Part shown: piece after piece, positions 23,945 to 59,398 of the stretch
Position numbering within the stretch: position 1 is the stretch's first letter
How the letters are laid out: each line of letters begins with the position of its first letter
NCBI GenBank assembly: GCA_039808985.1
Contig: JBDHUC010000001.1
Location: forward strand, 76,038-140,037
DNA from: Alphaproteobacteria bacterium
GTDB lineage: Bacteria > Pseudomonadota > Alphaproteobacteria > Rickettsiales > SXRF01
DNA length: 64,000 nucleotides
Reading direction: 5' to 3'
The notes under the pieces: model-generated
What the model was told of the DNA's origin: nothing
Databases searched by the model: none
Seen by the model: only the letters and a program-made list of their open reading frames with translations
Translations under genes and position numbers: made by a program

Positions 23945-25228
23945 ATGCACGATATAAAATATATAAGAAACAATCCCCAGGAATTTGACGCAGGCCTTGC
24001 ACGCCGTGGCCTTGCTCCGCTTTCCGCTGAAATTTTAAGGCTGGATGAGGAAAAGAGGGCTGTGCAGACAGAATTGCAGGAACTGCTTTCCAAGCGTAAC
24101 AGCTTTGCTAAAAAAATAGGCGAAGCAAAACGCAGCGGTGCTGACACTACGCAGATAATGGAAGAATCCAGGCTGGTTAATGATAAAATAGCCGGGTTGG
24201 AAAGCGCGCTTTCAGGCCGGGGGAAATTAGAGGAGATGCTTGAAACCATCCCAAACCTTCCGGCTGCCGATGTGCCAGACGGCGCGGACGAGCATGGTAA
24301 CAAACAAGTACGGATAGTTGGCGAGAAGCCAAAAATGGATTTTGCTCCAAAGCTGCATGACGAACTTGGAGTTGCCTTGAAACTAATGGATTTTGACGCA
24401 GCAGCGAAATTATCAGGTGCAAGGTTCGTTGTTCTAAAAGGTGCGCTTGCAAAAATGGAGCGTGCCCTTGCCAGTTTTATGCTCGATATTCACACCAACG
24501 CCAATAATCCAAATTTAGGTGGTTATACGGAGCATGTGCCGCCGTTTCTGGTGCGTGATAACGCTGTTTATGGAACAGGGCAGCTACCTAAATTCTCTGA
24601 AGATCTGTTCAAAACAGAAAATGGCTTCTGGCTGATACCAACTGCTGAAGTTCCGCTTACCAATCTGGTAGCCGATTCAATTATTGACGCTGATAGCCTG
24701 CCTATACGCATGACCGCATACACTCCTTGTTTCCGTTCAGAAGCCGGGGCTGCTGGCAAGGATACTCGCGGAATGATACGCCAGCACCAGTTCTCTAAGG
24801 TGGAGCTGGTTAGCATTACCTCTGCCGATAAGTCTGAAGAAGAGCATGAGCGCATGACAGGTTGTGCCGAAGAAATATTAAAACGCCTCGGGCTGCATTA
24901 CCGGGTTATGCTGCTTTGCACAGGGGATATGGGGTTTGGTTCACAAAAAACCTATGACCTGGAAGTATGGATGCCTGGACAGAATGCTTTTCGTGAAATA
25001 TCAAGCTGTTCCAATTGCGGTGCATTCCAGGCACGCAGGATGAAAGCGCGCAGCAAGGCAAAAGGCGCTAAGGAAACCGAATTTGTGCATACGCTGAACG
25101 GCTCCGGGCTTGCTATTGGCCGCACTATGGTTGCAATCCTTGAAAATTACCAGCAGGCTGACGGAAGCATATTAGTTCCGGAAGCCCTCAGGCCTTATAT
25201 GGGTGGATTGAAAGTGATTAGTGGTTAG
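23945..25228 (+). CDS. serS: serine--tRNA ligase
   Basis: [31 protein letters not shown]. Confidence 0.97.
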
Positions 25229-25295
25229 TGGATGGCGAATAGTGGGGAAAGAAAACAAGACTATGCCTAAACACAAATCACTAACTACTAGCCGT
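25214..25295. repeat. 7-nt periodic inverted-repeat element at the serS/surE junction
   Basis: gtgatta-gtggtta-gtggatg-gcgaata-gtgggga ... taaacac-aaatcac-taactac-tagccgt. Confidence 0.7.
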
Positions 25296-26063
25296 CAGAA
25301 AACGCCCCGTATCTTAGTGACTAACGACGATGGGATAAACGCGGAAGGCCTTAAAATACTCGAAGAAATTGCGCTTGCCATTTCCGATGATGTGTGGGTG
25401 GTGGCTCCTGAAACCGAGCAAAGCGGCGTTGCCCATTCACTGACCCTGCATTTGCCTGTGCGGGTACGTAAAATTTCGGCAAAGCGCTTTGCTGTTGGTG
25501 GCACACCAACTGATTGTGTGCTGCTTGCGGTCAAAGAGATAATTCCGGTAAAGCAAAAGAATGTTTCCCTGATATTATCAGGCGTCAATCATGGCTCCAA
25601 TGTTGGCGATGATGTCACCTATTCAGGAACTATCGCCGCTGCCATGGAGGGTACGATACTACATGTTCCTTCTATTGCGCTCAGCATGTCTAATGGTGAT
25701 TCAAATGGGATTAACTGGAAAACCGCGCAGAAACACGCTCCTGATCTAATTAAGAATCTACTCAAAGTAGGCTGGGAAGATAACGTGCTAATCAATATGA
25801 ATTTTCCTAATTGTCCACCAGGAAAGCTAAAAGGCGTGCAGGTTTGCCAGCAGGGAAAAAGGATTATGAATATAAACCTTAGCGAACGTACTGATCCTAA
25901 AGGGCGCCCATATTTCTGGCTTGGTGGGGAGCGCGATAATACGCCGGAAAAACCTGATGTTGATATTGATTATTTACAAAAAGGATTCATCACCATCACC
26001 CCCATCTGCATGGATCTTACAGACTATAAATCACTTGAAAAAATACGCTCTATTTTTAATTAA
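25263..26063 (+). CDS. surE: 5'/3'-nucleotidase SurE
   Basis: ILVTNDDG, GTPTDC, SGVNHG, YSGT. Confidence 0.95.
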   Translation: MPKHKSLTTSRQKTPRILVTNDDGINAEGLKILEEIALAISDDVWVVAPETEQSGVAHSLTLHLPVRVRKISAKRFAVGGTPTDCVLLAVKEIIPVKQKNVSLILSGVNHGSNVGDDVTYSGTIAAAMEGTILHVPSIALSMSNGDSNGINWKTAQKHAPDLIKNLLKVGWEDNVLINMNFPNCPPGKLKGVQVCQQGKRIMNINLSERTDPKGRPYFWLGGERDNTPEKPDVDIDYLQKGFITITPICMDLTDYKSLEKIRSIFN

Positions 26064-26088
26064 AAATTAAGTTTTTTTTGCTACGCAT

Positions 26089-26787
26089 GTGAGTGTGAAC
26101 CATATAGTAAAATCGCGAACAGTTTATCATTCCTCGCCGACCTTGCCGGTGGCTGAGGATGAGGCTTCGCAACGTATAAGATTATTGATGAAGCTACGCA
26201 GCAGCGGCATACGCGATGCTGCAGTGCTCTCGGCTATGGAGTCGATTCCAAGGGAATTATTTGTCGAGGATGTTTTTCGTGAACATGCTTATGACGATAC
26301 CGCGCTGCCAATAGCCCTGGGACAGACTATCAGCCAGCCTACTATAGTTGCTATGATGACTGTGGCATTAGAGGTTAAACCAAGAATGAGGGTTCTGGAA
26401 ATTGGCACAGGATCAGGATACCAGGCGGCAGTGCTGGCCAAACTGGCAAGAAGGGTATATAGTGTGGAGCGCCATAAGAACCTGCTGGCTATTGCTGAGC
26501 AGCGTTTTTTGCAATTACGGCTTACTAATATCGTCACTAAGCGCGGTGATGGCGCCAAAGGTTGGAAAGAGGCGGCACCGTTTGAGCGAATCATAGTGAC
26601 AGCGGCAGCTAAGGAAATTCCTGCGGCTCTGGTTGAACAACTGGCAGCAGGCGGGATTATGGTTATTCCGGTTGGCGAAAATGTAGCGAACCAGAAGCTT
26701 ATGCGCCTTACTAAAGGCGAAGATGGGAAAACATTTATAGAATCCTTGATGGATGTGCGTTTTGTGCCGCTGGTCGAGGAAAGATAG
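26089..26787 (+). CDS. pcm: protein-L-isoaspartate O-methyltransferase
   Basis: GQTISQP, VLEIGTGSGYQ, RFVPL. Confidence 0.95.
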   Translation: MSVNHIVKSRTVYHSSPTLPVAEDEASQRIRLLMKLRSSGIRDAAVLSAMESIPRELFVEDVFREHAYDDTALPIALGQTISQPTIVAMMTVALEVKPRMRVLEIGTGSGYQAAVLAKLARRVYSVERHKNLLAIAEQRFLQLRLTNIVTKRGDGAKGWKEAAPFERIIVTAAAKEIPAALVEQLAAGGIMVIPVGENVANQKLMRLTKGEDGKTFIESLMDVRFVPLVEER

Positions 26788-26796
26788 GATAAGTTT

Positions 26797-27684
26797 ATGT
26801 TAAAAAATTATTATACGGCCAGCATTCTTTTAGCCTTTGTAATTTGTGGCTGTACCCAGCAATCTTCTGCGCCGGTTGATTATAAAGGCGCGCAAAGCTA
26901 TACGCGCGGCAGCCAGTCTTATAATTCTTCACGTTCTTCCTCCTATAACAGCTATAATGGGGGAACAAACCCGGCCTATACTGCGCCTGTCCCCCAGGAA
27001 ACAGTACAGGATGCCTCTGTAGGCTCCATCGGAGTAAGCGATTTATCAGCGCCGGATAAAAATTCAGCACCTGCCGCGCTTGTCACTTCGCCAAACCAGG
27101 ATTCATATAGCGATTCACAAATAATTACCGAACGCCCGCCAGCTCCTAAGCCACAAGGCAGAAGCTCAAAGCCAGCAGTAAAAACCACGGTGAATCCATG
27201 GACCAACAAGCCGCGCAGCTCGAATGATACTAAGCAAACTCGTAAGCATGAGGTTAAGCTTGCCAAGGCCAGTATCCCGCAAAAAGATACAACTGATTTA
27301 AAATGGCCGGTTGCCGGGCGGAAGGTTATTTCCAATTTTGGCTCCAAAGGCAGGGGTAAGGCCAATGATGGCATTAATATAGCTGGTGCAGAAGGCGACC
27401 CGGTATGGGCAGCAGCCGATGGGCAGGTTGTTTATGCCAGCAACCGGCTTAAAGGGTTTGGCAATATGGTGTTCATAAAGCATCCCGGTGGGAAAACCAC
27501 GAGTTATGCGCATTTAAGCCGGACCAAAGTTGCTTTAAATGAAAAGGTAAAGCGCGGTGATGTTATAGGTTATATAGGCAAAACCGGAAATGTAAAAACC
27601 CCTCAGCTCTTTTTCTCCCTGCATAAGGGCAAGGAAGCCGTCAATCCTCAAAAATATATGAGCAGCGAAATAGCTGGGCTTTGA
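26797..27684 (+). CDS. M23 peptidase-like lipoprotein (NlpD-like)
   Basis: lipobox-like ICGC, WPVAG, NDGINI, YAH; surE-pcm-nlpD synteny. Confidence 0.85.
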   Translation: MLKNYYTASILLAFVICGCTQQSSAPVDYKGAQSYTRGSQSYNSSRSSSYNSYNGGTNPAYTAPVPQETVQDASVGSIGVSDLSAPDKNSAPAALVTSPNQDSYSDSQIITERPPAPKPQGRSSKPAVKTTVNPWTNKPRSSNDTKQTRKHEVKLAKASIPQKDTTDLKWPVAGRKVISNFGSKGRGKANDGINIAGAEGDPVWAAADGQVVYASNRLKGFGNMVFIKHPGGKTTSYAHLSRTKVALNEKVKRGDVIGYIGKTGNVKTPQLFFSLHKGKEAVNPQKYMSSEIAGL

Positions 27685-27745
27685 GGGCATGGCATTGCAT
27701 TTGGCTTTTATAATTCCGAGTAAAATGATGAATCATTGCTCAAAT

Positions 27746-27925
27746 GCCGTCATTGCGAGGGCGTAAGCCTGCGGCAATCCATTTGCTGGATGTGTCGTCA
27801 TCTTGCGAATTGCAATAGCAATTGCGCAGGATCTCAGGATATTTTTTCAGCTTGTCATGCCGCCGTATGGCGGTATCCGGTATTAAGCCTAAGGCCCAGA
27901 CCCCGCAACTGGTGCTGGGTCTGGG
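27746..27925. repeat. cluster of REP/RPE-like hairpins
   Basis: three different hairpins each preceded by GTCAT, plus a cccagaccc...gggtctggg hairpin. Confidence 0.7.
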
Positions 27926-27932
27926 CTGTATG

Positions 27933-28142
27933 CTATATTCCTCTTCCGGCAATTTCCGACTGTGGATTAGCGTTTTTATAATCAACCATAATTCTAGCAA
28001 CCAGATTTTTTGCATCTGGGTTATTAAGTAATGAATGCTTTATAATAGTAGCTGCACCTGGATTTTTCTGACCAGTCAACTCCCGGTCAACGTACCAATG
28101 TATAGCCCTTACTTCTTGTTCATTTGGTTGATACGCTGCCAT
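27933..28142 (-). CDS. small hypothetical protein
   Basis: 69-aa ORF from MAAYQP with ggagag RBS. Confidence 0.5.
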   Translation of the reverse strand: MAAYQPNEQEVRAIHWYVDRELTGQKNPGAATIIKHSLLNNPDAKNLVARIMVDYKNANPQSEIAGRGI

Positions 28143-28254
28143 AAACTCTCCTATGCATCTGTTGTTGTTAAGTAAGCAGAAGTGTAACAACTTATAGTAA
28201 TTTTAACAGTGACAGTTTTATTACAAGATTAATGCATTGTTTTACATATATTAT

Positions 28255-29115
28255 TTACAAAAGCCTTTTGCCCATTTTTCCGGCGAGGTCCTGTATGAAC
28301 TGCCATGCCACCCGGCCACTGCGCGCCCCGCGGGTTATCTGCCATTCAAGGGCCTTTTTCTTTAAATCATCAGGCGCTATGTCCAGCTTGTAGCGTTTTA
28401 CATAGCCCTCAACTATATTGAGATAGGTATCCTGCGAGCAGGAATAAAAGCCGATCCAAAGGCCGAAGCGGTCTGAGAGAGATACTTTTTCTTCCATAGG
28501 TTCGCCGCCATGAATTGCCGCATTGCTTTCATTTTCAATCATTTCCCGCGCCATCAAATGGCGGCGGTTGGATGTTGCGTAAAACAATATATGCGACGGG
28601 CGGCCTTCAATCCCACCATCAAGTATGGATTTAAGGGATTTATAACTGCTGTCATTACTATCGAATGACAAATCATCGCAAAAAATTATAAAGCGGCGGA
28701 TAACCCAGCCACGCAAGGTTTGGATAAGCTGCGGCAGGGTTGCTATATCTTCGCGGTGTATTTCAACCAGCACCAAAGACCTTGGGTTAAGTTGGTTTAC
28801 ATGTGAGTAAACAGACTTAACCAGGGAGCTTTTGCCCATGCCCCTGGCGCCCCAGAGCAATACATTATTTGCTGGCAGGGATTTTGCAAACTGCATGGTA
28901 TTGGCAAGCAATGCATCCCTTGCTTCGTCTATACCCTGAAGCAGGTTAATATCCATTGCGTCCGGATATTCAACCGGTATCAGGCTTCTTTCCTCCGCGT
29001 TCCACACATAAGCATCGGCGTTTTTAATATCGGCGGGTGGTTTCGCCTTTGGCAGCATTTCTTCCAGCGCGGTTGCTATACGCTGTAAAACCCTGATTGC
29101 GTCCTGCGTTGTCAT
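28255..29115 (-). CDS. DUF815 family AAA+ ATP-binding protein
   Basis: WGARGMGKSS, FCDDLSF, YATSNRRHL, SLSDRFG. Confidence 0.9.
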   Translation of the reverse strand: MTTQDAIRVLQRIATALEEMLPKAKPPADIKNADAYVWNAEERSLIPVEYPDAMDINLLQGIDEARDALLANTMQFAKSLPANNVLLWGARGMGKSSLVKSVYSHVNQLNPRSLVLVEIHREDIATLPQLIQTLRGWVIRRFIIFCDDLSFDSNDSSYKSLKSILDGGIEGRPSHILFYATSNRRHLMAREMIENESNAAIHGGEPMEEKVSLSDRFGLWIGFYSCSQDTYLNIVEGYVKRYKLDIAPDDLKKKALEWQITRGARSGRVAWQFIQDLAGKMGKRLL

Positions 29116-29122
29116 ATTCGTG

Positions 29123-29629: not shown

Positions 29630-29653
29630 AATTCCTCCCTGAGCGTTTTATCT

Positions 29654-30394
29654 TTAAGTTCTAACCTCAAATAGTCGCCCACTCAACCATCCTGCGGATA
29701 ATGCCAGTATAATTGCCGATATGCCGTATAATACAGGAGAATTATGGGCATAATTATAAATAAATGCATCCAATCCGCTTTTTACAACATTTATAGGCAT
29801 TGATTGCATTCCTACCACTTCTCCATCGCTTATAAGATATATTTCAGCGGTATAATCACCAGGTGGTATACTATCAGAAAATTCTATAACCGTTTTAAAG
29901 AGTGTTTCGCTCATAAACCCTATATTTTCAGGGTTTGTTGCATAAAGCTTGTTCACATGCTGGTGATCTAGGAAAGCGGTCTGGAATTCACTGAATTTAT
30001 CAGTTTCCATTTCGGATGACGCGTTGGTAAACAGGTTTTCCTCACCAATGCCAAGCCTTTTGAAAAGAGCTGATTTATTTATTTCGGATAAAGGCTTGCT
30101 GCTTGCTACTGCATAGTAATCCGGAACATCATAAAATTTCATGCGGTCATGGTTTATCCATATACCTGCGAATTTTTCTTTTTTACGTATCATGTAGTTT
30201 TTTTTAGGGCCACGCACCACAACCACTATATCCCCGCTATCATTACGCACACCGAATAAAAACATGCGAGTGCCGTTGAACCCGGCATCCATCGCTATGC
30301 TATAGTTGGAGAGATCCGCAACTAACGGTGCTGCATTTGCATGTGGCGCAAGCAATAAAAAAACAAGCATCAATAAGCTGAAAAATTTAGTCAT
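29654..30394 (-). CDS. TIGR02186 family membrane protein
   Basis: LVADLS, FNGT..FLFG, RKKEK.AGIWIN; paired with a TauE gene. Confidence 0.85.
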   Translation of the reverse strand: MTKFFSLLMLVFLLLAPHANAAPLVADLSNYSIAMDAGFNGTRMFLFGVRNDSGDIVVVVRGPKKNYMIRKKEKFAGIWINHDRMKFYDVPDYYAVASSKPLSEINKSALFKRLGIGEENLFTNASSEMETDKFSEFQTAFLDHQHVNKLYATNPENIGFMSETLFKTVIEFSDSIPPGDYTAEIYLISDGEVVGMQSMPINVVKSGLDAFIYNYAHNSPVLYGISAIILALSAGWLSGRLFEVRT

Positions 30395-31295: not shown

Positions 31296-31303
31296 TATTT
31301 ATT

Positions 31304-31918: not shown

Positions 31919-31926
31919 TTAAAATT

Positions 31927-32910: not shown

Positions 32911-32922
32911 CTTTTTATCCGA

Positions 32923-34955: not shown

Positions 34956-35710
34956 GCCTTGCGCGCAACCGCAAATGCTGAAAAAGCCTGCTGCGTTGGC
35001 ATTATTTCCACACGGTTTATATTTACATGCGCTGGCCTGCTTATAGTCCATAATATAGTTTCAGCTATGTCATTTGCGGTCAGGGGTTGCATCCCGGAAT
35101 ATACGCCTGCTGCCTTGCTTTTATCGCCTGAGAAACGGACAATTGAAAATTCGGTTTCGGCCATGCCTGGCTCGATATTCGTTACCCTGATATTTTTGCC
35201 TATAAGATCTGCGCGTAAGTTAAGCGAGAATTGAGTTACAAAAGCTTTTGTGGCACCGTAAACGTTGCCGCCGGGATATGGGTATGTCCCTGCAATCGAA
35301 CTTAAGTTGATTATATGACCGTTATCGCGCTCTATCATGCCAGGCAGCAGGGCATGAGTGCAATTTATAACCCCCGTGATATTGGTTTGCACCATGCGCT
35401 CTAAATCAGTTTCTTCCTGTCTGTCAAATGGCGACAGGCCAAGCGCCAGGCCAGCATTATTCACCAGTATATCAACTTTCGAAAATTCCTCAGGAAGCCC
35501 GGCAATAGCCTTTTTTACTGCGGCATTGTCCCCAACATCGAGCCTTATCCCAAAAACACTGTCAGGAATTTCACTTTTCAATTCGTCCAGGCGTTCCTGT
35601 CTTCTGCCACAGGCGATTATTTTTGCACCGTTATGGGCAAATAATTTTACGCAGGCCAGGCCAAAACCAGCGGTTGCGCCTGTAATGAATATGGTTTTAT
35701 GTTTGAGCAT
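34952..35710 (-). CDS. SDR oxidoreductase, YdfG-like
   Basis: TGATAGFG, NNAGLALG, YGATK. Confidence 0.9.
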   Translation of the reverse strand: MLKHKTIFITGATAGFGLACVKLFAHNGAKIIACGRRQERLDELKSEIPDSVFGIRLDVGDNAAVKKAIAGLPEEFSKVDILVNNAGLALGLSPFDRQEETDLERMVQTNITGVINCTHALLPGMIERDNGHIINLSSIAGTYPYPGGNVYGATKAFVTQFSLNLRADLIGKNIRVTNIEPGMAETEFSIVRFSGDKSKAAGVYSGMQPLTANDIAETILWTISRPAHVNINRVEIMPTQQAFSAFAVARKA

Positions 35711-35714
35711 TGGA

Positions 35715-35801
35715 TTAGCTACGGAATACCAGTTACTAGTTGCGAGTAAATATAATATAAACTAAAAAACTGGCAACTAGTAACTAGTAACCAGTAGCTA
35801 A
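35715..35801. repeat. 7-nt periodic inverted-repeat element between the SDR gene and ccmC
   Basis: tagctac-ggaatac-cagttac-tagttgc ... gcaacta-gtaacta-gtaacca-gtagcta. Confidence 0.8.
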
Positions 35802-35804
35802 ATT

Positions 35805-36524
35805 ATGCATCGCTTTGCTAATCCTGCCCAGTTTATCCGTCTTGCCGATAAATGCCTGCCGTGGCTTGCAGGAATTACCTGCTTTGCAATATGCGTGGGC
35901 CTGCTTGAAGCATTATTTGTTTCTCCGCCGGATTATCAGCAGGGTGACAGCGTGCGAATTATGTATGTGCATGTTCCCGCTGCCATGCTTTCAATGGCTA
36001 TTTACAGCGCGATGGCCGCTGCATCAGCAAGCTTCCTGGTATGGCGGCATCCACTTGCTGATATTGCAGCGCAGGCAAGCGCACCAATCGGGGCCGGATT
36101 TACATTAATAACCCTTATAACAGGCTCGCTATGGGGAAAGCCGATGTGGGGAACATGGTGGGTATGGGATGCAAGGCTTACCTCAGAGCTTATATTATTT
36201 TTCATGTATATAGGGTACATAGCACTCGCCGATAGCTATGCTTTCCAGGAGCGCGGAAAGAAAATATGCGCGGTCATGGCGCTTGTCGGGTTTGTCAATA
36301 TTCCGATCATTCATTTTTCCGTTGAATGGTGGAATACGCTGCACCAGCCAGCAAGCATAATACGCAGCGGCGGAATCGCTATTGACAATGCAATGCAGAT
36401 ACCGCTTTTTTCAATGCTTGCGGCCTTTGCCCTGATTTATATCACCCTTCTTATTCTGCGCGTTAAAACTATGGTTTTACAGCAAAAACTCCGCCGCCTG
36501 CAATTTAACGTGAAATCAACGTGA
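35805..36524 (+). CDS. ccmC: heme exporter protein C
   Basis: YVHVP, WGKPMWGTWWVWDARLT, WWNTLHQ. Confidence 0.96.
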   Translation: MHRFANPAQFIRLADKCLPWLAGITCFAICVGLLEALFVSPPDYQQGDSVRIMYVHVPAAMLSMAIYSAMAAASASFLVWRHPLADIAAQASAPIGAGFTLITLITGSLWGKPMWGTWWVWDARLTSELILFFMYIGYIALADSYAFQERGKKICAVMALVGFVNIPIIHFSVEWWNTLHQPASIIRSGGIAIDNAMQIPLFSMLAAFALIYITLLILRVKTMVLQQKLRRLQFNVKST

Positions 36525-48785: not shown

Positions 48786-48799
48786 TGACGCGCCTGCTT

Positions 48800-49433: not shown

Positions 49434-49589
49434 TCAATTAGAAGTTTTTGATATTTTTGTATTAAAAAAATTCTCTACATTTGCAGTTTCCTCCTTTATT
49501 GCCGCCAGCCTTTCCAGCTTTTTATGCTCAACATCTTCAAAATGCGTTTCAGCACGTTTGCAAAGATGGTGCAGCTTCATTGCCCCTAG
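49434..49589 (-). pseudogene. possible 3' remnant of an HPt-domain gene
   Basis: LGAMKLHHLCKRAE resembles HPt LGAxxLxxxCxxxE; begins at a repeat element end. Confidence 0.45.
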
Positions 49590-49750
49590 CATTTTCCATT
49601 TAATCGTGCGCGTTGTTATCCTTCGCCTCATGTACTAACAAAATCCGCATGCGGGATTTTGTAATTTATAAAAAGCAAATCCCACATGTGGATTTGCTGT
49701 GTACACTTCGCCTCGGATTCCTAGCGCACAATTAAAGCGAAAACGCTCTA
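49587..49750. mobile_element. RPE-like palindromic MITE, copy 2 (164 bp)
   Basis: 7 substitutions and a 2-nt deletion relative to 15083..15248. Confidence 0.85.
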
Positions 49751-49770
49751 GGTTGTTTCTTTTGTTAGCG

Positions 49771-49859: not shown

Positions 49860-50108
<249 letters not shown>

Positions 50109-50112
<4 letters not shown>

Positions 50113-50193
50113 TGATTAGATTATTAGATGACAAGGTGATTAAAAAGTACTAAATATCTTAGCTATCTAATCATCAAATAATCTAATCATCTA
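50109..50193. repeat. 8-nt periodic inverted-repeat element
   Basis: tagatgat-tagattat-tagatgac ... atcatcaa-ataatcta-atcatcta; 17-bp perfect terminal IR. Confidence 0.85.
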
Positions 50194-51121: not shown

Positions 51122-51164
51122 AACATTTTTTCATCTTTATTAGCAATCCGATTGGAATGATTCC

Positions 51165-51671: not shown

Positions 51672-51685
51672 ATGGGTAAAAAATT

Positions 51686-53230
51686 ATGTTGGAAGCAATT
51701 ACAGATTTCTGGAAGCCGGTAAAGAAAACAGCACAGGCAGCTAAACTCAAGCTGACTGACATGCAGATCGGCAGCATTGTAACTTTTGGTTATGTTCCTC
51801 AGGCAGCGTTAAGCGGCAAAAAACTCACAGTAAGCTCTATAAACAGCTATCAGTTCGGCCAGGATGTACTTACTTCCTTTGTTTTAAATAATGAAAAAGA
51901 CGGCATGATCTCGGTGATAATTGCGGAAGCGCAGGGCGAGCAATATCTTGCTATTTCCCGCCGCATCTCTGAAAGCGAGCGTTCCCGGCTATTTGATGAG
52001 GATTCCATAAAAGAAGTAACTTCTAACAACGAAGTTTCAACATTCAAATGCAAAGATAACATACCGGAGCTTAAGGGCTGGCTGGTTTCCAATTACAAAC
52101 GTGAAATCCAGGGCATGCGCGGCTTCCTGCATAAGGCTGATTTTCGCAATGGAAATACTGGCTCGCATTCAGGTGCTGAATTCAGCTATACTTTGCTTGG
52201 CAGCAACAGTAACGAACATGCCATCGAGATAGAATCCTACAAAGACGGGCATATGGATATTTATGCAACAATTTACCGCCGTACCAGCGATATAACCGAT
52301 GTAACCAATAATGATGACAAAACACAAAAGTCAGATGTTAAGCTGGTAAGCAAAAATGAGGAGTTGCCCGTTAAGGCTCCTGAACCAGCTAAATCTGCAC
52401 AGCAGCCGGTAATTAATATACCTGATACCACTGAAAAACCAGTAGAGGCCGCAAAACCAGAGAAAAATACGCCAAAGCTTGATAATGGTTCGGAAATCAC
52501 TCTAAAATCAGATAAGCCGGAACCGCCCAAGCTAGCATCTTCCGCTTCAGAACCTGTAAAGCTTGAATCCGTTGCGCTGCCGCAGATGGTAGCAACACCG
52601 CTTGCGCCGGAGCTTGAAAAACCAAAAGCTGAAGAAATAAAGCAGGAGCCTGAAGCTGTAAAAGTTGAGCCGGTCAAGGCTGAACCTGCCAAAGAAGAAA
52701 TTTCCAGGAAGGAAGAAGTTAAAGCACAAGAGCCTGAAACTAAAAAACCTACAATAACTGAGCCAGAACCAATTAAAAACAATGAGGAGAAAAAAATCAT
52801 GAGTACGGCCACAACAATGGGAAATGATATAAAGCCAGCGGGAACTAATGGCACGGCCCCTGCCGACCCGTCTGCAAAGAATTTCGGAAATTATAATAAG
52901 GACTATAATAATAAACAGGAGATTAAAGCCGTGAATAAAATAACAAATGGTATGGATAATGAATCCGTAGAGTGCGACCTGCGTGTTGCCAACCAGTTAA
53001 TTGATGAAGCAATCCGCAATGAAATGCGCTTATCAGATGTCGTGCGCCGCATTATAGAGCTTCCGGTTGCCCATCAGGAAGCAGTACATATTCCTATCAA
53101 CCTGGCCGATGAAGATTATTCGCTTCTGGCTATACGTTATGGCATACCATCAACCGATCGCAATGCTATAAAGCTTCGCATCATTCAGGATCTGGGCGAT
53201 TTTTCAGGAAACAAGAAGAAAGCCTCTTAG
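51686..53230 (+). CDS. multidomain hypothetical protein (DUF2491/YjfK-like N-terminus, Pro/Glu/Lys linker, small C-terminal domain)
   Basis: 514-aa ORF; domain calls from memory of motif patterns. Confidence 0.7.
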   Translation: MLEAITDFWKPVKKTAQAAKLKLTDMQIGSIVTFGYVPQAALSGKKLTVSSINSYQFGQDVLTSFVLNNEKDGMISVIIAEAQGEQYLAISRRISESERSRLFDEDSIKEVTSNNEVSTFKCKDNIPELKGWLVSNYKREIQGMRGFLHKADFRNGNTGSHSGAEFSYTLLGSNSNEHAIEIESYKDGHMDIYATIYRRTSDITDVTNNDDKTQKSDVKLVSKNEELPVKAPEPAKSAQQPVINIPDTTEKPVEAAKPEKNTPKLDNGSEITLKSDKPEPPKLASSASEPVKLESVALPQMVATPLAPELEKPKAEEIKQEPEAVKVEPVKAEPAKEEISRKEEVKAQEPETKKPTITEPEPIKNNEEKKIMSTATTMGNDIKPAGTNGTAPADPSAKNFGNYNKDYNNKQEIKAVNKITNGMDNESVECDLRVANQLIDEAIRNEMRLSDVVRRIIELPVAHQEAVHIPINLADEDYSLLAIRYGIPSTDRNAIKLRIIQDLGDFSGNKKKAS

Positions 53231-53233
53231 TAT

Positions 53234-53295
53234 CAGATGACGGATGACAGACGGCAGATGACAAGCTGTCATCCGTAATCCGTTATCCGTCATCC
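53234..53295. repeat. 7-nt periodic inverted-repeat element between convergent genes
   Basis: cagatga-cggatga-cagacgg-cagatga ... tcatccg-taatccg-ttatccg-tcatcca. Confidence 0.85.
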
Positions 53296-53298
53296 AAT

Positions 53299-53811
53299 TT
53301 ATTTCGGGCCAACCAGCATTGAGATTTGCTTGCCTTCTATGCGCGGCGACTGCTCTATTTTAGCGTGCTCAGCAAGAGCTGCCTGGACCTGGTTTATAAC
53401 CTTCATCCCGATCTCGGAATGATCCATTTCGCGCCCACGGAAGCGCAGGGTAATACGTACCTTATCACCTTCTTCAAGGAAGGCCAGTGTATTACGCATC
53501 TTAATGTCGAGGTCATGCTTGTCGATCATAGGGCGGAGCTTGATTTCCTTCACCACCACTACTTTCTGCTTTTTGCGCGCTTCGTGAGCTTTCTTTTGAA
53601 TTTCGTAACGGTATTTACCGTAATCAAGAATTTTGCATACCGGAGGGGAAGCAGTTGGAGATATTTCTACCAGATCCAAGCCCGCTTTTTCGGCAAGCGC
53701 TATACCTTCGTTGACTGTAACAACGCCAACCATATTGCCATTTTGATCTACTAAGCGGATTGATTGTGAGGTGATTTCGCGATTTACGCGTGGTTCTTCG
53801 GGGCGGCTCAT
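53299..53811 (-). CDS. infC: translation initiation factor IF-3
   Basis: RVNREI, GLDLVEI, PPVCKILDYGK, KEIKLRP, RFRGRE. Confidence 0.96.
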   Translation of the reverse strand: MSRPEEPRVNREITSQSIRLVDQNGNMVGVVTVNEGIALAEKAGLDLVEISPTASPPVCKILDYGKYRYEIQKKAHEARKKQKVVVVKEIKLRPMIDKHDLDIKMRNTLAFLEEGDKVRITLRFRGREMDHSEIGMKVINQVQAALAEHAKIEQSPRIEGKQISMLVGPK

Positions 53812-53848
53812 GCTAAGCCTACTAACAGTTTAATCAAACAGTCCTCCT
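53808..53848 (-). promoter_or_regulatory. AGGAGG + TTG/ATT-initiated uORF whose stop overlaps the infC ATG
   Basis: aggagg-actgt-TTG ATT AAA CTG TTA GTA GGC TTA GCA TGA. Confidence 0.6.
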
Positions 53849-54058
53849 ATAAAAATTAACAATACCATATATATGGGCAAACAAAACTATAGCGCAAAGA
53901 TATTAAAAATCCATTGCGAATATCTGTAGATAGCTCAAATCCGCAGAAAATCAAGGCATAAATGGCAATATCGCATCTATGGCCCGTATTTTTGATGGCT
54001 TAACAGTCTACTTTCATGTTATATCAGTGCTATATATCTCCATCCTCCAGGCCAACTA

Positions 54059-54844
54059 ATGCCCAATATTAGCACCCCCACCTGCAAAACTGGCTTCACA
54101 CTAATAGAGCTAGCTATAGTCATGGTTATTATCGGCTTGGTTGTAGGCGGAATCATGATTGGTAAGGAGTTGATAAGGGCGGCAGAAATCCGTGCTTCAA
54201 TCAGCCAGGTCGAGCAGATAAAAACTGCCATAAACACATTCAAGGTTAAATATAATTGCCTTCCTGGCGATTGTACCTATGCAACAAATCTATTCGGCAC
54301 CGATTCAAACGGATGCCCCGCTGGCGGTGGCACCGGGACCTGCAATGGCGATGGCAATGAAAAGATTTCTGATATTAGCTACACCGACAACGGGCAGGAA
54401 GTTTACCGCCTGTGGCAACAGCTAGGTTCCGGTTACGCCGACCTTATACCAGGTAAATATACAGGAGTTTACACCAGTGCAGCTTTTAAATTCAGACCAA
54501 ACGCCGGTGTAAATGCGCCTATTAACAAACTTTTTCCTAATGGAGTTATGCGTTTATACAATCTCGATAATTATGCAGGAGGCAGCAATTTTTTTGCCGC
54601 AAATTATAAACATATACTGGAATTCTGGGGTAACAGCACCGTTATAACCCCATCAGTTACTCCATCAGAGGCACTTTCTATTGATACAAAATATGACGAT
54701 GGGATGCCTGGATATGGAAATATAATGAGTTACAGGAACACTATTCTCCCTAATTGCCTTACAACCAACTCTGTTATCACTGCAAAATATGACATCAGCT
54801 ACGCGGCCATAAATTGCAGCGTGTTTTTCAAGATGGGGTTTTAA
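54059..54844 (+). CDS. prepilin-type (pseudopilin) protein
   Basis: [11 protein letters not shown]-methylation motif, [14 protein letters not shown]. Confidence 0.88.
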
Positions 54845-56754
54845 GCCGGAACTTCTGCCTCAGCGAGCAGTAGTTTTTTAGCTTCGGCAAAGCTCATATT
54901 TTCCTGTTTTTCTGAGCCGAGCCTACGGATGGAAACGCTGGCGCTTTCCTGCTCTTTTGCGCCGACCACAAACATTACAGGTACTTTCTGCAAACTATGC
55001 TCACGCACTTTGTAATTTATTTTGTTGTTGGAAATATCAAGCTGGGCGCGGACTCCTGATTGTTTCAATTCATCGCAGAGTTTCTGGGCGTATTCGTCTG
55101 CTGCTTCGGTGATAGTTGCCACCACCACCTGCACAGGTGCAAGCCACAGCGGGAATTTGCCTGAATGCTCCTCAATCAAAATGCCGATGAAGCGTTCCAG
55201 CGAGCCGAGTATAGCGCGGTGCAGCATCACCGGGCGTTTTTTGCTTCCGTCCGGCGCTACATAATTAGCGTCAAGGCGTTCAGGCAGCACAAAATCCACT
55301 TGCAGGGTGCCGCATTGCCAATCGCGCCCGATGGCGTCACGCAGCACAAATTCCAGCTTAGGGCCATAAAACGCGCCCTCGCCAGAGTTCAACGTCCATT
55401 CCAGCCCGGCAGCGTTTACTGCTTCTTTCAGGGCGTTTTCGGCTTTGTCCCATGTTTCATCAGTTCCGGCGCGCTTGGCGGGGCGGTCGGAGAATTTCAC
55501 ATTTACCTGGGTGAAGCCAAAGGTTTTATATACGTCTTTAAGCAGGTCGCAGAAAGCAACTGTTTCTGAGGTGATCTGGTCTTCGGTGCAGAATATATGC
55601 GCGTCATCCTGCACAAAGCCACGAATACGCATTATCCCATGCAAACTGCCGGATGGTTCATTGCGGTGGCAAGTGCCGAATTCCGCCATACGCAGCGGCA
55701 GGTCACGGTAGCTCTTTAGTCCCTGACGGAAAATCTGCACATGGCAAGGGCAGTTCATCGGCTTTACCGCCATTGTGCGCTCTTCATCAGAGTTGCTTAC
55801 GAACATGTTTTCGTGGAATTTTTCCCAATGCCCGCTGGCTTCCCACAGGCTGCGGTCAACCAGTATCGGGGTTTTTACTTCGATATAGCCGTTTTTCCTG
55901 ATTTTAGTGCGGATATAATTTTCAATGATGCGGAAAATCGTCCAGCCTTTGTCATGCCAGAATACCATGCCCGGTGTGTGTTCTTCAATGTGGAAAAGTT
56001 CAAGCTCTTTACCGAGTTTGCGGTGGTCGCGCTTTTCCGCTTCTTCGAGCATGGTCAGGTAATTTTTCAGGTCTTTCTCGGAAGCCCAGGCTGTGCCGTA
56101 AACCCGCTGTAACATTTCATTGTTGGAATTGCCGCGCCAGTATGCGCCTGCTACTTTAAGCAGCTTGAAACCTGTGCCGATCTTGGCAGTGCTTTCCGCG
56201 TGAGGCCCACGGCAGAGGTCAATAAAATTGCCTTGTCTGTATAAGGATATTTTCTGTTCGGCAGGAATTGCGCCGATGATTTCTGCTTTGTAATCCTCAC
56301 CGATTGATTTGAAGAATTTTACTGCTTCATCCCTGTCCCATTCCTCACGGCGGATTGGCTCACCACGCGCCACAATCTCACGCATACGCTTTTCAATCGC
56401 CTCTAAATCATTGCTGGAAAACGGGGTAGGGCGGGAAAAATCATAATAAAAGCCGTTATCGATGGCAGGGCCAATGGTAACTTGCGTTTCCGGGAATAAT
56501 TCTTTTACTGCCTCTGCCAGTATATGCGCTGTATCATGACGGATAAGCTCCAGCCCATCTGCATCTTTGGCGGTGATTATCTGCACCTTGGCATCATGCT
56601 CAATCGGCAGGTAAATGTCTTTTAACTCACCATCCACCCGCACACATAAAGCAGCTTTGGCAAGCCCTGCGCCAATGGACGCGGCAAGCTCTTCACCGGT
56701 TACGGCATTTGCAAATTCTCGTTTTGAACCATCAGGAAGGGTGATTATGGGCAT
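54841..56754 (-). CDS. thrS: threonine--tRNA ligase
   Basis: TGS domain, [32 protein letters not shown]. Confidence 0.97.
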
Positions 56755-56757
56755 AGT
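56722..56757. repeat. 36-bp direct repeat copy A (thrS start)
   Basis: 35/36 identical to 59252..59287. Confidence 0.95.
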
Positions 56758-56762
56758 CTTTG

Positions 56763-56797
56763 GTTATTTGTGGTTAGTAATTAGTGGTTAGTTATAA
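56763..56797. repeat. single heptamer arm upstream of thrS
   Basis: gttattt-gtggtta-gtaatta-gtggtta-gttataa. Confidence 0.7.
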
Positions 56798-56815
56798 GGA
56801 AAATTTAGGCGGTGT

Positions 56816-59284
56816 CTAGTGTTCAGTATTATTTTTACCTTTGCAGGGATACCTTGAACTATCAATACAGCCAAACCAGAATGGCGTGGCTTTTGCCCAT
56901 GTTGTATAGCCATACCGTTTATGTAGTATTTTGTATGCTTTATGGGAATAATCAGCATGTGAACCATTGCTGGCACAACCATAACGGGTGGTCCTTATTG
57001 CATTGGATAAATCAGAAGCTATCTGGTTGTTGTCATTTTCCGAATTCCAGAATTTCCAACGCTCTATATTAGCACGTGCTATTATAGAGCGGCTTAGATA
57101 TTCCGGCCCGGATTTAAGTTCTTCAAGCTGCTCAAGTTCATTTTTGTTCATTACGCTACGATATGGATGCTGTTCCATGAGCACCTTTTGCTTTTCAATA
57201 TATGGCTCGATTTCCTTGTGAATATCAACACCATCTATTAAAGTTTTTCTTAGCCCCCAGCTTATATCCGGCGGCCTTATGCGCGCCGCTTCAAAAATAC
57301 CGTCCTCAATGTTTTTTTCATCCACCTTACACCACCAGTTATTATCATTGTGGTTATAGGTGTCTATTTTTGACATATCTTCAACAACGCCGTTACCGGA
57401 ATTATTAGTCACCACATATTCCAGATATGGATTTGGCCGGAATCTTGGCGAGCGCACTAAAAACTCGATAAATTTATACCTGTCGTTGCTGGCCGCAGCC
57501 GTCAGCAATTCCTGCCGTACCGGTGGGTTAAGTTTAGCAGCAAGCTTTGCGTACGTATCAAATTTATCTTTATCAAATCCAAGCAGAAAAGCACGGGTTA
57601 CAGCAGCCCTTGCAAATAAAGGTCGTTCCAGTGGCAAAGTTTCTTCGCTATTTGCCAGATTATAAAGCTCTTGCGTGGAAACTGCATCAACCATCTTCTT
57701 CCATAATTCCGGAGAATTTGTATTTTCCCAAGAATTAGGGTTATGATTTCGGTTTATTTTTACCACTTCATCCCAACTTGTTGCAAGCAATGTCCTCCAA
57801 TGCTGGAATTTATCTGGATAGATTTTTAGTATTGCCGCAAGTTGCGCCCTTGCTTCATCCACCTTGCCAGTATACACGAGCCAGCGCAGGGATTTTTGCA
57901 GTATGGCTATACCCATATCATTCCTGCTTGAATATGGAGAGTCCATTTCCAATTCCAAGCCGCTGTAATCAACATGCTGTTCAACAAGATTCAAAGCTTC
58001 CTTATATTCCTCCCGCCCTAGGTGGATTCGTATTGCCTGCTCCCACATATCGAGCAGCCAATAACGGTATTCCTGTGTTTCGTTTTTCCAGGCACGGTTG
58101 AAATATGGCTCTGATTCTTTCAATATATTGCCTGCTAGTTCATCTTCAGGATGCGCGCGGCGGGCTGCAATTTGCAGCCACTCAAGCCCATCTCCATTTT
58201 TCCAGCGCTGCCATGCGTGGGTAACTATGTTACGATTTTGCTCCCAATAAGGGTTGCTTGCAATATGCAGAGCAAATAGCCAGTCAGTATCGAAAATATT
58301 ATAAGCCCACTTTGCCTGCATCCAGTCCACCAGTTCATTCTTTGGTGCAAGCGCTTCTACAGCTTTCATCCTGCCTGAAGAAACAGGAATATCTCTCAGC
58401 CACCAGTCCACTGTTTTTGATTCGCCGTCATAAACCGGGAAATAAGTATTTAATTGCTCCATCGCATCCGAATAATCATTAAAGCTCTGCTTAAGATTTA
58501 CCGCCTTTTCTGGTGTTACTTTTATAGTTTTCAGCAACCAGTTTAAATGCTTTTCTGGATCAGGAGCGCCATACCAGCCCATGATGAATTTATAGTTAGC
58601 GGTAATATCATGGACGGATTTCAGGCTATCATCAGCGAGTACAACATCTATAAGGTTATAAGCCTCAGCTTCACCGCCTAGTTTAACCATCGTCCTAAGT
58701 GACATATATGCTGCCATGGGACGTATAGGCGCATCATACATATGCACAATTTTTTTATATATCTGCATGGCATCTATAAAATCACCGCGATAAAAATGCT
58801 GGGAGGCTTTCTGGTACAGAAAATCGCTTTCAGCACGCTTAGGCAATTCGCCTTTTGGTTCCACTAAATCAACAGGATTATTCTGGCGGAAATCGCACGC
58901 AGAAAAAACCCTATCCTGGTTTTCAGCCCATATTTTCTGGTATGGGGTTTCCTTGCCTAATTCAGCTCGTATCTGCTCAAGGACTTTAATAGCACTGTCA
59001 TATTGGCAATTTCCTATACTCCAGTTTGCTGATGGCGGAGCTACGGCTTTAATATCCATCCCAATAAGCAGTTTATTCCATATTTTTACCTTTTGCTGGC
59101 CAGAATCATAATCGTAACTATCCCTGCGCTGGTAAAACAAACCTGGTTTATCAGAAAAAAATTCTTCCGTAATTAACGATGGTCTTTTGCTTTCTTCAGC
59201 AAAAACAATATTTGGCAAAAGAAGGATTATAAGCAATAGGATAGAATGCCATTTTAAACCATCAGGAAGGGTGATTATGGGCAT
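56816..59284 (-). CDS. large secreted helical (TPR-like) hypothetical protein starting with the ThrS N-terminus
   Basis: 822 aa; MPIITLPDG then signal peptide; C-terminal TRYGC...LHKRY...WAKATPFW. Confidence 0.8.
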   Translation of the reverse strand: MPIITLPDGLKWHSILLLIILLLPNIVFAEESKRPSLITEEFFSDKPGLFYQRRDSYDYDSGQQKVKIWNKLLIGMDIKAVAPPSANWSIGNCQYDSAIKVLEQIRAELGKETPYQKIWAENQDRVFSACDFRQNNPVDLVEPKGELPKRAESDFLYQKASQHFYRGDFIDAMQIYKKIVHMYDAPIRPMAAYMSLRTMVKLGGEAEAYNLIDVVLADDSLKSVHDITANYKFIMGWYGAPDPEKHLNWLLKTIKVTPEKAVNLKQSFNDYSDAMEQLNTYFPVYDGESKTVDWWLRDIPVSSGRMKAVEALAPKNELVDWMQAKWAYNIFDTDWLFALHIASNPYWEQNRNIVTHAWQRWKNGDGLEWLQIAARRAHPEDELAGNILKESEPYFNRAWKNETQEYRYWLLDMWEQAIRIHLGREEYKEALNLVEQHVDYSGLELEMDSPYSSRNDMGIAILQKSLRWLVYTGKVDEARAQLAAILKIYPDKFQHWRTLLATSWDEVVKINRNHNPNSWENTNSPELWKKMVDAVSTQELYNLANSEETLPLERPLFARAAVTRAFLLGFDKDKFDTYAKLAAKLNPPVRQELLTAAASNDRYKFIEFLVRSPRFRPNPYLEYVVTNNSGNGVVEDMSKIDTYNHNDNNWWCKVDEKNIEDGIFEAARIRPPDISWGLRKTLIDGVDIHKEIEPYIEKQKVLMEQHPYRSVMNKNELEQLEELKSGPEYLSRSIIARANIERWKFWNSENDNNQIASDLSNAIRTTRYGCASNGSHADYSHKAYKILHKRYGYTTWAKATPFWFGCIDSSRYPCKGKNNTEH

Positions 59285-59287
59285 AGT
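59252..59287. repeat. 36-bp direct repeat copy B
   Basis: duplicate of the first 11 thrS codons plus 3 upstream nt. Confidence 0.95.
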
Positions 59288-59288
59288 T

Positions 59289-59398
59289 GTATTTTGTGGA
59301 TGGTGAATTGTTATTGGTGATTAGTGAGCCGTTATTTATAATGAAAATTACTGATATGTCCACTACTCACTATCCACTAATCGCTAACCACAAGTTAC
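59289..59398. repeat. 7-nt periodic inverted-repeat element
   Basis: seven GT-starting heptamers, then tgtccac-tactcac-tatccac-taatcgc-taaccac-aagttac. Confidence 0.8.

Follow-up and report, generated by a model that had tools for sequence, protein, structure and literature searches.

Hairpin elements with periodic 7- and 8-nt arms at gene junctions of an alphaproteobacterial genome: probable gene-less members of a PF05635 cassette family

The window analysed here, a stretch of 64,000 nucleotides, carries six sites of short tandem repeats which, as an earlier note on this DNA had claimed, build periodic inverted-repeat elements at gene junctions. Sequence inspection located all of them at the positions reported before, and TRF detected a period of 7 or 14 at 25213, 35775, 53271, 56766 and 59359 and a period of 8 at 50109 and 50165. 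The junctions, which host 6/6 sites, are serS stop/surE start (25214), SDR start/ccmC start (35715), tRNA-Pro/dapA (50109), the stop of an uncharacterised 514-aa gene/infC stop (53234), thrS start/TPR-gene stop (56763) and TPR-gene start/sdhA stop (59289). Arms measure 23-33 nt and spacers 3-39 nt; no ORF lies within the spacers. In an Rfam scan of the window tRNA-Pro was the sole match, and no element is located inside a 23S rRNA gene, where ORF-bearing IVSs occupy helix 25 or 45. The features are as follows.

25214..25247, plus strand: element 1, left arm of GTGRTTA-type heptamers (TRF, gene map)
25248..25271, plus strand: element 1, spacer with a purine-rich run, then ATG (25263-25265)
25272..25296, plus strand: element 1, right arm of reverse-complement units, a SurE N-terminal extension when translated
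35715..35747, plus strand: element 2, left arm, CAGTTAC/AGTTGC-type
35748..35768, no strand: element 2, AT-rich spacer of 21 nt
35769..35801, plus strand: element 2, right arm, ending 3 nt short of the ccmC ATG (35805)
50109..50131, plus strand: element 3, left arm, 8-mer TAGATGAT-type (TRF, inverted-repeat scan)
50132..50170, no strand: element 3, AT-rich spacer of 39 nt
50171..50193, plus strand: element 3, right arm, inverted-repeat partner of the 8-mer left arm
53236..53263, plus strand: element 4, left arm of GATGACR heptamers
53267..53294, plus strand: element 4, right arm, after a 3-nt loop
56727..56757, minus strand: 31-nt exact repeat, copy A, with the thrS start codon and 9 codons
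56762..56794, plus strand: lone arm, GTGGTTA-type, left arm at the thrS-proximal copy of the duplicated thrS 5' region
59257..59287, minus strand: 31-nt exact repeat, copy B, now the start codon of the 822-aa TPR ORF (56816-59284)
59288..59328, plus strand: element 6, left arm, GTGRWTR-type, degenerate
59329..59359, no strand: element 6, spacer with the core TTATTTATAATGAA, common to the thrS upstream region of the relatives G008, G001 and G007
59360..59393, plus strand: element 6, right arm, 9 nt short of the sdhA stop (59403-59405)

RNA folding yielded strong hairpins for elements 2, 3 and 4 (z -7.9, -6.9 and -7.0) and weak ones for elements 1 and 6 (z -3.1 and -2.25), and no fold for the arm at 56763. 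This arm had been listed as a lone one; it is no isolated half-element but the left arm of a copy of the duplicated thrS 5' region. The left arm of element 1 encodes the last serS codons together with the TAG stop (25226-25228), and from the ATG in its spacer the frame is open through the right arm into surE. The same spacer layout recurs in filled and empty alleles of relatives. A distance of 4 nt separates the left arm of element 2 from the minus-strand SDR start codon (35708-35710), and a minus-strand promoter-like site, seen by consensus scan only, has its -10 box in the spacer of this element and its -35 box in the right arm. The 8-mer family of element 3 is also present at the tRNA-Pro/dapA junction of G008, G002 and G007. 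Element 4 occupies the whole interval between the stop codons of its two convergent neighbours (53230 and 53299), and its unit GATGACR equals the Coxiella IVS repeat word GACAGAT, rotated.

No T-run follows element 4, and an intrinsic-terminator scan of two elements (35650-35860 and 53150-53380) returned 0 terminator-like sites. In lacking the T-run after the stem, these two differ from intrinsic terminators, and they are therefore not canonical ones. This counts against the reading, highly improbable in our view, that selection by the host has made the hairpins structural or regulatory signals (terminators, stabilisers of mRNA or protein-binding arrays) which arose by in-place slippage, with the link to a four-helix-bundle gene incidental. 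The same reading would account well for arms abutting start codons, comparable to the TAACTGA repeats proposed as translational signals in PMC4679880, and for the fact that the element at 53234 is unchanged in contigs of three studies. Moreover, the convergent junction of the 514-aa gene and infC holds some hairpin in 5/5 comparable genomes, and since these hairpins come from at least three families, one seems to be needed there.

In the genome as a whole, the pattern is far above chance. We counted 71 period-7 and 26 period-8 arrays versus 1-5 for periods 4-6, and three order-3 Markov simulated genomes gave 0, 0 and 0 period-7 and 4, 0 and 2 period-8 arrays. The intergenic segments, a crude call covering 12.4% of the genome, contain 42 of the 71 period-7 arrays and 19 with period 8, compared with 0-2 in each of five dinucleotide shuffles; a frequency no higher than in shuffled intergenic DNA, which the earlier note had named as refuting it, was thus not observed. 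A scan for autocorrelation and inverted repeats, as suggested in that note, gave 249 merged inverted repeats. Where the arm autocorrelation reached 0.7 or more, lag 7 (27 cases) and lag 8 (12) were the maxima, with 3 at lag 6 and 1 each at lags 2, 5 and 11. The 97 arrays comprise 54 canonical units in at least 10 unit families, the two commonest units with 9 arrays each, and identical families are found at many sites of the genome.

The earlier note mentioned similar arms around four-helix-bundle genes of the 23S IVS type and stated that no such gene lies between the arms here. Within the window the latter is correct; genome-wide it is not, as eight genes of PF05635 (23S rRNA IVS protein) are located between arms elsewhere, all outside the window. 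Inverted 7/8-mer arms flank 8/8 of these by inspection and 6/8 by an automated criterion; several further PF05635 matches are fragments. Family-wide, 35 loci were examined; at 32 of them the inverted repeat is better than in 20 shuffles, and 25 pass a strict periodic criterion. In 51 of the 97 arrays the unit is at most one mismatch away from the unit of one of the eight filled cassettes (random expectation 8.7%). The density of period-7/8 arrays per 400 kb, compared over six phylogenetically non-independent genomes, was 0-1 in two sampled genomes without PF05635, 1 in a genome with 2 PF05635 genes, 7 in one with a single gene, 10 in one with 7, and 16-28 in this genome with its eight. Both the arms at 8/8 genes and the scarcity of arrays in the two genomes without PF05635 argue against host signals with an incidental gene link. 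In G003, empty hairpins are retained and the PF05635 gene is absent.

The complete form consists of a left arm with 3-6 units of 7 or 8 nt in tandem, a ribosome-binding site, the PF05635 gene and a reverse-complement right arm. This is the build of ORF-bearing 23S rRNA IVSs, but located between protein genes. The elements of the window are probably gene-less members of this family of hairpin-armed insertion cassettes, the full form of which carries one PF05635 four-helix-bundle gene.

Comparison of orthologous junctions in relatives supports the earlier proposal of footprints or empty cassettes left by an insertion process. At serS/surE, 20 loci comprise 7 without an element, 6 filled, 4 empty, 1 with another gene and 2 not assessable; the 4 empty hairpins, this genome's among them, differ in their units. 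A SerS tree unites all occupied alleles of this genus in a single clade (support 96), the neighbours of which are unoccupied. Of the 16 sucC/sucD loci, 8 lack an element and 4 are filled; in G014 the arms enclose an ORF with an internal deletion, and 1 locus each is empty, nested or taken by another gene. At prs/rplY, 9 of 15 loci have none, 1 is filled (this genome), 3 are empty, 1 has a lone right arm (G003, of this genome's 8-mer type) and 1 a REP-like hairpin. Where these three junctions are unoccupied, the flanking genes abut or overlap. The cassettes are DNA insertions lying precisely at gene boundaries, a single junction is unoccupied, filled or empty across related genomes, and ORFs decay within the arms. 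The elements are thus not fixed in relatives as ordinary terminators; that most relatives lack them at these junctions also speaks against signals selected by the host.

Arms evolve fast, yet both arms of one element stay matched. For the SDR/ccmC element the arm match has a mean score of 15.1 within species (n=6) versus 8.7 across species (30 pairs), and mirrored unit variants numbered 40 versus 20.2 +/- 3.4 with unit order shuffled, in a test that is biased because the best register was chosen. Among 20 empty elements, the spacers have nothing in common beyond words of 7-9 nt. There is consequently no recognisable common cassette remnant, which weighs against the cassette reading, and the spacers at divergent junctions, which look like native promoter DNA, fit arms placed around local DNA as well as a deleted cassette. 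Another point against this reading is that GATGACR and GATGAATR, an 8-mer, are abundant unit families but occur in this genome without any filled copy. A further one comes from G001 and G005, which are 93-96% identical in most shared loci: at serS/surE they carry differing cassette types with proteins only 57% identical, and at prs/rplY G005 has an empty element where G001 has none. As such close relatives differ in cassette type and presence, simple vertical decay is no explanation.

These differences, the unrelated units at one junction among close relatives and the families without a filled copy would be expected if the empty elements were non-autonomous mobile units of REPIN or MITE type, inserted as hairpins, with a host enzyme or the four-helix-bundle protein mobilising them in trans. 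The numbers point the same way, with 32 clean empty elements and many lone arrays in this genome against 8 filled cassettes. We nevertheless regard this as unlikely. Every spacer is distinct, and element pairs align only inside the arms, with a single pair aligning over at least 35 nt, unlike a true MITE of this genome, the copies of which are 94-97% identical over about 164 nt. The elements resemble MITEs in being short and ORF-less, with terminal inverted repeats and a location at gene junctions; unique spacers, the lack of near-identical copies and the lack of any visible target-site duplication at sucC/sucD and prs/rplY, judged against unoccupied alleles, set them apart. REP/REPIN elements with RAYT transposases (PMC3116915) are similar in forming hairpins between genes, in having a small gene with inverted copies of the repeat on either side and in the many copies that lack a gene. 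However, a search for the Y1/RAYT transposase (PF01797) gave 0 matches in this genome and was positive in 6/14 control genomes, and the copies here have a periodic word in common rather than a conserved palindrome. A four-helix bundle is their cargo, and PF05635 is not known to have a catalytic activity. In PMC4990558 the protein of ORF-bearing IVSs is given as of unknown function.

Some arms enclose ordinary genes (DUF3576, 5S rRNA and the TPR gene). This would be in line with arms made anew by a telomere-addition-like process, in which a DNA break has each of its 3' ends extended by repeats of a locally seeded unit; inverted arrays, (unit)n on the left and its reverse complement on the right, are then expected around whatever DNA was captured. 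As anecdotal evidence, the first unit continues the native flank in three places (GTGAT at serS, ATAGA upstream of tRNA-Pro and AGGAA on both sides at sucC/sucD). We consider such an origin exceedingly improbable: no reverse transcriptase gene was found in this genome, which is 100% complete by marker genes, and identical unit families turn up at many sites and accompany related proteins at one junction, in keeping with arms that move together with the gene and are not seeded locally.

Under the cassette reading, most empty elements and lone arms would be remnants after loss of the ORF in situ. The leftover arms may provide the stop of the upstream gene or a ribosome-binding site and ATG for the downstream gene, or may enclose a promoter, and empty elements are perhaps tolerated because the genes on either side remain functional thanks to arms and spacer. 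By analogy with the Coxiella IVS (PMC4990558), a transcript spanning both arms would form a 20-33 bp stem and hence a putative RNase III substrate, the cutting of which would part the flanking cistrons. An RNase III gene is present in this genome. Against the RNA step stands that stem mismatches of 17 co-directional elements (A.C 20, G.U 14, sense strand) have no G.U excess and so give no pointer to selection on an RNA stem, and that at divergent junctions each transcript would hold only one arm.

Short IVSs without an ORF occur in other bacteria, and the cyanobacterial STRR are dispersed heptamer repeats. According to PMC4990558, the ORF-bearing 23S rRNA IVS of Coxiella burnetii (helix 45) and Leptospira has terminal inverted repeats with a stem of about 28 bp, like the elements here. 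Its stem in Coxiella includes tandem GACAGAT heptamers, the unit of the element at 53236, in numbers that vary between strains, and RNase III cuts this stem in vitro; the full form carries a four-helix-bundle gene of PF05635/S23p, and decay of the ORF is described (same source). In contrast, the present elements lie between protein genes or beside a tRNA gene, outside rRNA, comprise many unit families in one genome with 8-nt as well as 7-nt units, and lack the S23p/PF05635 ORF in the window copies, which is present in the eight cassettes elsewhere and in alleles of relatives.

Heptamers of other bacteria are covered by parts of three further papers: 70-75 inverted GGGAATC pairs in Xanthomonas, often convergent and potentially forming stem-loops (PMC4692102), TAACTGA repeats in Beggiatoaceae, cyanobacteria and Bacteroidetes (PMC4679880) and heptanucleotide elements in Geobacter (PMC2700814). 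As far as these texts go, they too are tandem 7-mers, over-represented, mostly intergenic, often beside start codons and conserved in type between related species, but with one or few words per genome as opposed to at least 10 PF05635-tied families here. No gene cargo is described for dispersed heptamers in these portions, and the terms S23, 23S and 'intervening' occur 0 times in PMC4692102 and PMC4679880. Heptamer repeats and IVSs have each been described; a link between both was not found in the literature.

A further, rather doubtful idea is that the four-helix-bundle protein, a pentamer, partners its own repeats of 7 or 8 nt in a sequence-specific manner, with about one unit per subunit (arms have 3-6 units), and would drive insertion of the cassette, arm homogenisation or maintenance. 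Such a partnership, if true, would constitute a class of mobile elements without a classical transposase and would give one origin to the STRR, GGGAATC and TAACTGA heptamers of many phyla and to the rRNA IVSs.

The very large protein family PF05635 has no known function, and the dispersed heptamers of bacteria have been without explanation for decades. Since unoccupied, filled, half-deleted, empty and lone-arm states are seen at the same junctions within one genus, these two puzzles are tied to each other and to the rRNA IVSs. For annotation, long heptamer arrays explain contig breaks at such sites, and cassette arms explain odd C- and N-terminal extensions of housekeeping genes, here at the end of SerS and the start of SurE.

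The elements studied here, in which inverted arms of 7- or 8-nt tandem units enclose a spacer, are DNA insertions at gene borders, and one and the same site can be empty (gene-less), filled by a gene of PF05635, the four-helix-bundle protein family of the 23S rRNA intervening sequence (IVS), or half-deleted. Sequence inspection and TRF located six sites in the window, as the earlier note had described them, five being two-armed and one single-armed, with periods of 7, 14 and 8 reported by TRF.

Periodic elements of the window and their neighbouring genes (Pfam; SDR, short-chain dehydrogenase)
25214-25296, two-armed element between serS and surE, GTGRTTA-type heptamers
35715-35801, two-armed element between the SDR gene and ccmC, AGTTACY-type heptamers
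50109-50193, two-armed element between tRNA-Pro and dapA, 8-mer TAGATGAT
53236-53294, two-armed element between a 514-aa gene and infC, GATGACR heptamers
56762-56794, single-armed site between thrS and an 822-aa TPR gene
59288-59393, two-armed element between the 822-aa TPR gene and sdhA, GTGRWTR heptamers

Each of them takes up the intergenic gap almost wholly. RNA folding in comparison with shuffled sequences gave z values of -6.9 to -7.9 for three elements and modest ones (-3.1 and -2.25) for two. An Rfam search returned tRNA and 5S rRNA only and matched no other family, and a terminator scan ruled out the reading as terminators for the two elements scanned. Contigs from DNA sequencing runs of four studies (X2, X4, X7 and X11) bridged the element at 53234 in three runs and were identical, with no indels reported; the same was observed for the X2 contigs bridging the elements at 50109 and 59289. 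Since contigs lose rare variants, this is no proof that the elements are invariant.

Such arrays are far more abundant than in simulated or shuffled sequence. An autocorrelation scan of the whole genome (G000; 2.05 Mb, 62 contigs, 45.6% G+C) yielded 71 arrays of period 7 and 26 of period 8, and 1, 1 and 5 arrays for periods 4, 5 and 6. Three genomes simulated with an order-3 Markov model contained no period-7 and 0-4 period-8 arrays. Crude intergenic segments, comprising 12.4% of the genome, held 42 period-7 and 19 period-8 arrays, compared with 0-2 in five dinucleotide shuffles. Among 249 merged inverted repeats, periodic arms peaked at lag 7 (27) and lag 8 (12), the other lags being 6 (three cases) and 2, 5 and 11 (one each). 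Filtering left 32 clean two-armed elements with spacers of at most 135 nt, located at 22 co-directional, 4 convergent and 6 divergent junctions; most lie 0-25 nt from the flanking ORFs, and 6 fall inside crude ORF calls. Their median spacer is 34 nt at divergent, 15 nt at convergent and 16.5 nt at co-directional junctions, a weak trend with overlapping ranges. Of the 97 units, 79 contain a stop trinucleotide on one strand or both, versus 73% of letter-shuffled units; the excess is too weak and the arrays are too non-independent to support a designed all-frame stop. We also observed perfect (AACTACT)n arrays of 13-17 units (C31:23731-23851, C49:1-91 and C55:1-121); they are located at contig ends or close to them, so such arrays probably interrupt the assembly.

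The connection to PF05635 was seen in the same genome. A profile search detected eight genes of this family (23S_rRNA_IVP), all above the curated cut-off, and by inspection all eight are flanked on both sides by inverted arrays of 7- or 8-nt units. In an automated test the inverted repeat beat 20 shuffles at six of the eight. One of the two failing loci has weak arms, and at the other (on contig C37) about 190 nt separate the gene from the left arm, putting the arm beyond the scanned flank; a MITE match (92%) within this interval could be the cause of the gap. Across the bacterial family, 32 of 35 loci (8 own and 27 from relatives, one more being dropped for too short a flank) beat the shuffles and 25 passed a strict criterion, i.e. 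a score of at least 12 together with a period-7/8 autocorrelation of at least 0.6. The eight filled cassettes carry eight different units, two of them 8-mers, and in 51 of the 97 arrays the unit differs by at most one mismatch from that of a filled cassette, versus 8.7% for random words. Neither the GATGACR family (element at 53236) nor the 8-mer family GATGAATR has a filled copy in G000. Structures similar to the protein are PDB entries 2gsc and 2rld, both deposited as five-chain entries; the Xanthomonas protein is, as cited in PMC4990558, a homopentamer built from four-helix bundles. Other genes were seen between arms as well. At C5:12709-13395 (L167), TTAGGGA-type arms 655 nt apart surround a 101-aa ORF, which matched no Pfam family, and a REP-like GTCATNCCG hairpin. 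At C20:29449-30090 (L169), 8-mer arrays enclose a 5S rRNA gene and a copy of a MITE, with a complete empty element at 30038-30090. This 5S rRNA gene and a DUF3576 gene between arms are probably ordinary genes amid neighbouring elements.

The earlier note had regarded the window elements as footprints or empty cassettes, and alignment of orthologous junctions, the check that it suggested, bears this out with unoccupied, filled and empty alleles at serS|surE, sucC|sucD and prs|rplY. At serS|surE, 20 loci comprise seven without an element, six filled, four empty, one with an unrelated gene and two that are not assessable. Six of the unoccupied loci have a serS stop that overlaps the surE ATG or lies directly beside it, and the seventh has 30 extra repeat-free bases. 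Filled alleles use the unit GGCTTAR in relatives G002, G005 and G007, GGCATTR in G001 and G018, and a related unit in G004; the empty hairpins of G000, G008, G003 and G023 each have their own unit. In filled and empty alleles alike, the last serS codons and the stop come from the left arm, and an ATG immediately ahead of the arms or within them opens a frame that continues across the right arm into surE. A quick-method tree built from SerS alone (325 columns) groups the genus in a clade with support 96, all assessable alleles within it being filled or empty and the nearest neighbours unoccupied. The encoded PF05635 protein types track the unit, with 78-85% identity within GGCTTAR, 75% within GGCATTR and 53-65% in all other comparisons, G004 included.

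Among 16 sucC|sucD loci, eight are unoccupied and one has an unrelated gene. Three are filled with the 8-mer cassette of G000 and one (G007) with a different 7-mer cassette; G014 has the latter type with an internally deleted ORF covering PF05635 positions 1-50 only, G010 carries an empty element, and in G006 a left arm is followed by other genes. At this last locus (L115), about 1.2 kb of other genes and a REP-like hairpin lie behind the 8-mer left arm, and one gene end resembles, by eye, a GIY-YIG nuclease; this looks like a nested insertion, with a cassette as its target. The 15 assessable prs|rplY loci comprise nine unoccupied, one filled (G000) and three empty ones, the latter with two unrelated kinds of unit (by eye, the G005 and G007 units resemble each other); G003 has a lone right arm of G000's 8-mer type, and one locus has a REP-like hairpin. 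No target-site duplication was seen at sucC|sucD or prs|rplY, and at both the native ribosome-binding site is retained past the right arm. The first left-arm unit often extends the native flank, as with GTGAT of serS (25214-25219) and ATAGA upstream of tRNA-Pro (50105-50112), and AGGAA flanks the sucC|sucD cassette left and right (L107); this continuity may be due to chance, to microhomology during insertion or to the unit being seeded there.

Other junctions of the window were compared as well. At SDR|ccmC, arms abut both start codons in six of nine genomes, are degenerate in two and absent in one, and the units vary by 1-3 bases between species. The 8-mer family at tRNA-Pro|dapA is kept in four genomes of the genus, and a 7-mer hairpin occupies this place in another genus. 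Next to infC, all five comparable genomes have a hairpin, of at least three families. Turnover of the cassettes is fast: three of the junctions differ between G001 and G005, two genomes with 93-96% identity across most of the loci they share. An indel between the two at SDR|ccmC proved to be an unrelated gene. A non-periodic hairpin family (GTCATNCCG...CGGNATGAC) was found at some of the same junctions (L057 in G002, L089 in G009 and L138 in G034), and in G000 on contigs C5 and C52.

The site at 56762 was confirmed as single-armed; the view of it as an isolated half-element did not hold. The thrS 5′ region is duplicated in G000, with a 31-nt exact core covering the start codon and nine codons, so that this arm belongs to the thrS-proximal copy as its left arm. 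The duplication brackets the TPR gene (56727-59393 for the whole region), whose 822-aa ORF begins at the duplicated thrS ATG and continues with a signal-peptide-like stretch. In G008 and G002, thrS adjoins sdhA without the 2.5-kb TPR gene, and other relatives have different inserts here. Beyond the core, arm and spacer of the two copies are identical at just 52 of 87 aligned columns; given a recent duplication, this would mean that the arms have diverged much faster than the adjoining bases.

PF05635 is present in 17 of 25 genomes of the bacterial family, with counts within the genus of 8, 7, 1, 0, 2, 9, 6, 6, and 3 plus one broken copy. Array density was set against the number of these genes in six sampled genomes; the association is a hint and not a test, as the six are related.

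PF05635 genes and arrays (period 7 plus period 8, per 400 kb)
G013: 0 genes, 1 array
G030: 0 genes, 0 arrays
G004: 2 genes, 1 array
G002: 1 gene, 7 arrays
G001: 7 genes, 10 arrays
G000: 8 genes, 16-28 arrays per chunk

G003 has no PF05635 gene, yet it contains empty hairpins and the lone arm, which fits with relics outliving the gene. Most gene-less elements are probably what remained after loss of the ORF.

The two arms of an element change together. Arm match at SDR|ccmC had a mean score of 15.1 within the same species (n=6) versus 8.7 across species (30 ordered pairs). Unit variants mirrored between arms numbered 40 versus 20.2 +/- 3.4 with shuffled unit order (0 of 1000 reaching this), a test biased by the register being chosen for best fit. 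The spacers have no common sequence, and only one pair of elements aligns over at least 35 nt; the elements are therefore not recent whole copies of each other, and copies of a true MITE of G000 are 94-97% identical. Spacers vary by junction, with 3 nt at convergent infC, a purine run plus ATG at serS|surE, and at divergent SDR|ccmC an AT-rich sequence with a promoter-like site (consensus scan); in G001 and G005 this spacer holds, by eye, TTGACC-17-TATAAT.

Processing at the RNA level has a precedent in the Coxiella IVS, described in PMC4990558 as a 28-bp stem of tandem GACAGAT units, variable in number between strains and cut by RNase III in vitro. By analogy, the stems may be RNase III substrates in transcripts spanning both arms; RNase III is encoded in G000. 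Against a rationale based on RNA only, G.U is not in excess among the sense-strand mismatches in the stems of 17 co-directional elements (A.C 20, G.U 14), and a transcript at divergent junctions contains one arm only. Genes for reverse transcriptase or Y1/RAYT transposase were not found in G000. Heptamer repeats have been described elsewhere, among them 70-75 inverted pairs of GGGAATC in Xanthomonas (PMC4692102), TAACTGA repeats (PMC4679880) and Geobacter elements (PMC2700814). IVS-encoded PF05635 genes were noted in the rRNA of CPR bacteria (PMC11270868), and PF05635 was noted as a variable gene in UCYN-A (PMC11637426). In the literature searched, which covers main texts in part and few subscription journals, we found no link of repeats and PF05635 in cassettes at operon junctions, nor empty and filled alleles.

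Other repeats lie close to the tRNA-Pro element. A MITE copy of about 165 nt is located at 49588-49756, with many copies of 94-97% identity (e.g. C4:85376, C1:26065 and C5:63648), and a shorter 105-nt form is also common in G000. At 49918-50112 an 85-nt tandem repeat is present in 2.3 copies, each extra copy consisting of the first 19 nt of tRNA-Pro (49860-49936, minus strand) and a small hairpin insert. It resembles an old insertion accompanied by a long duplication of its target; one extra copy is found in G002 and a similar one in G013.
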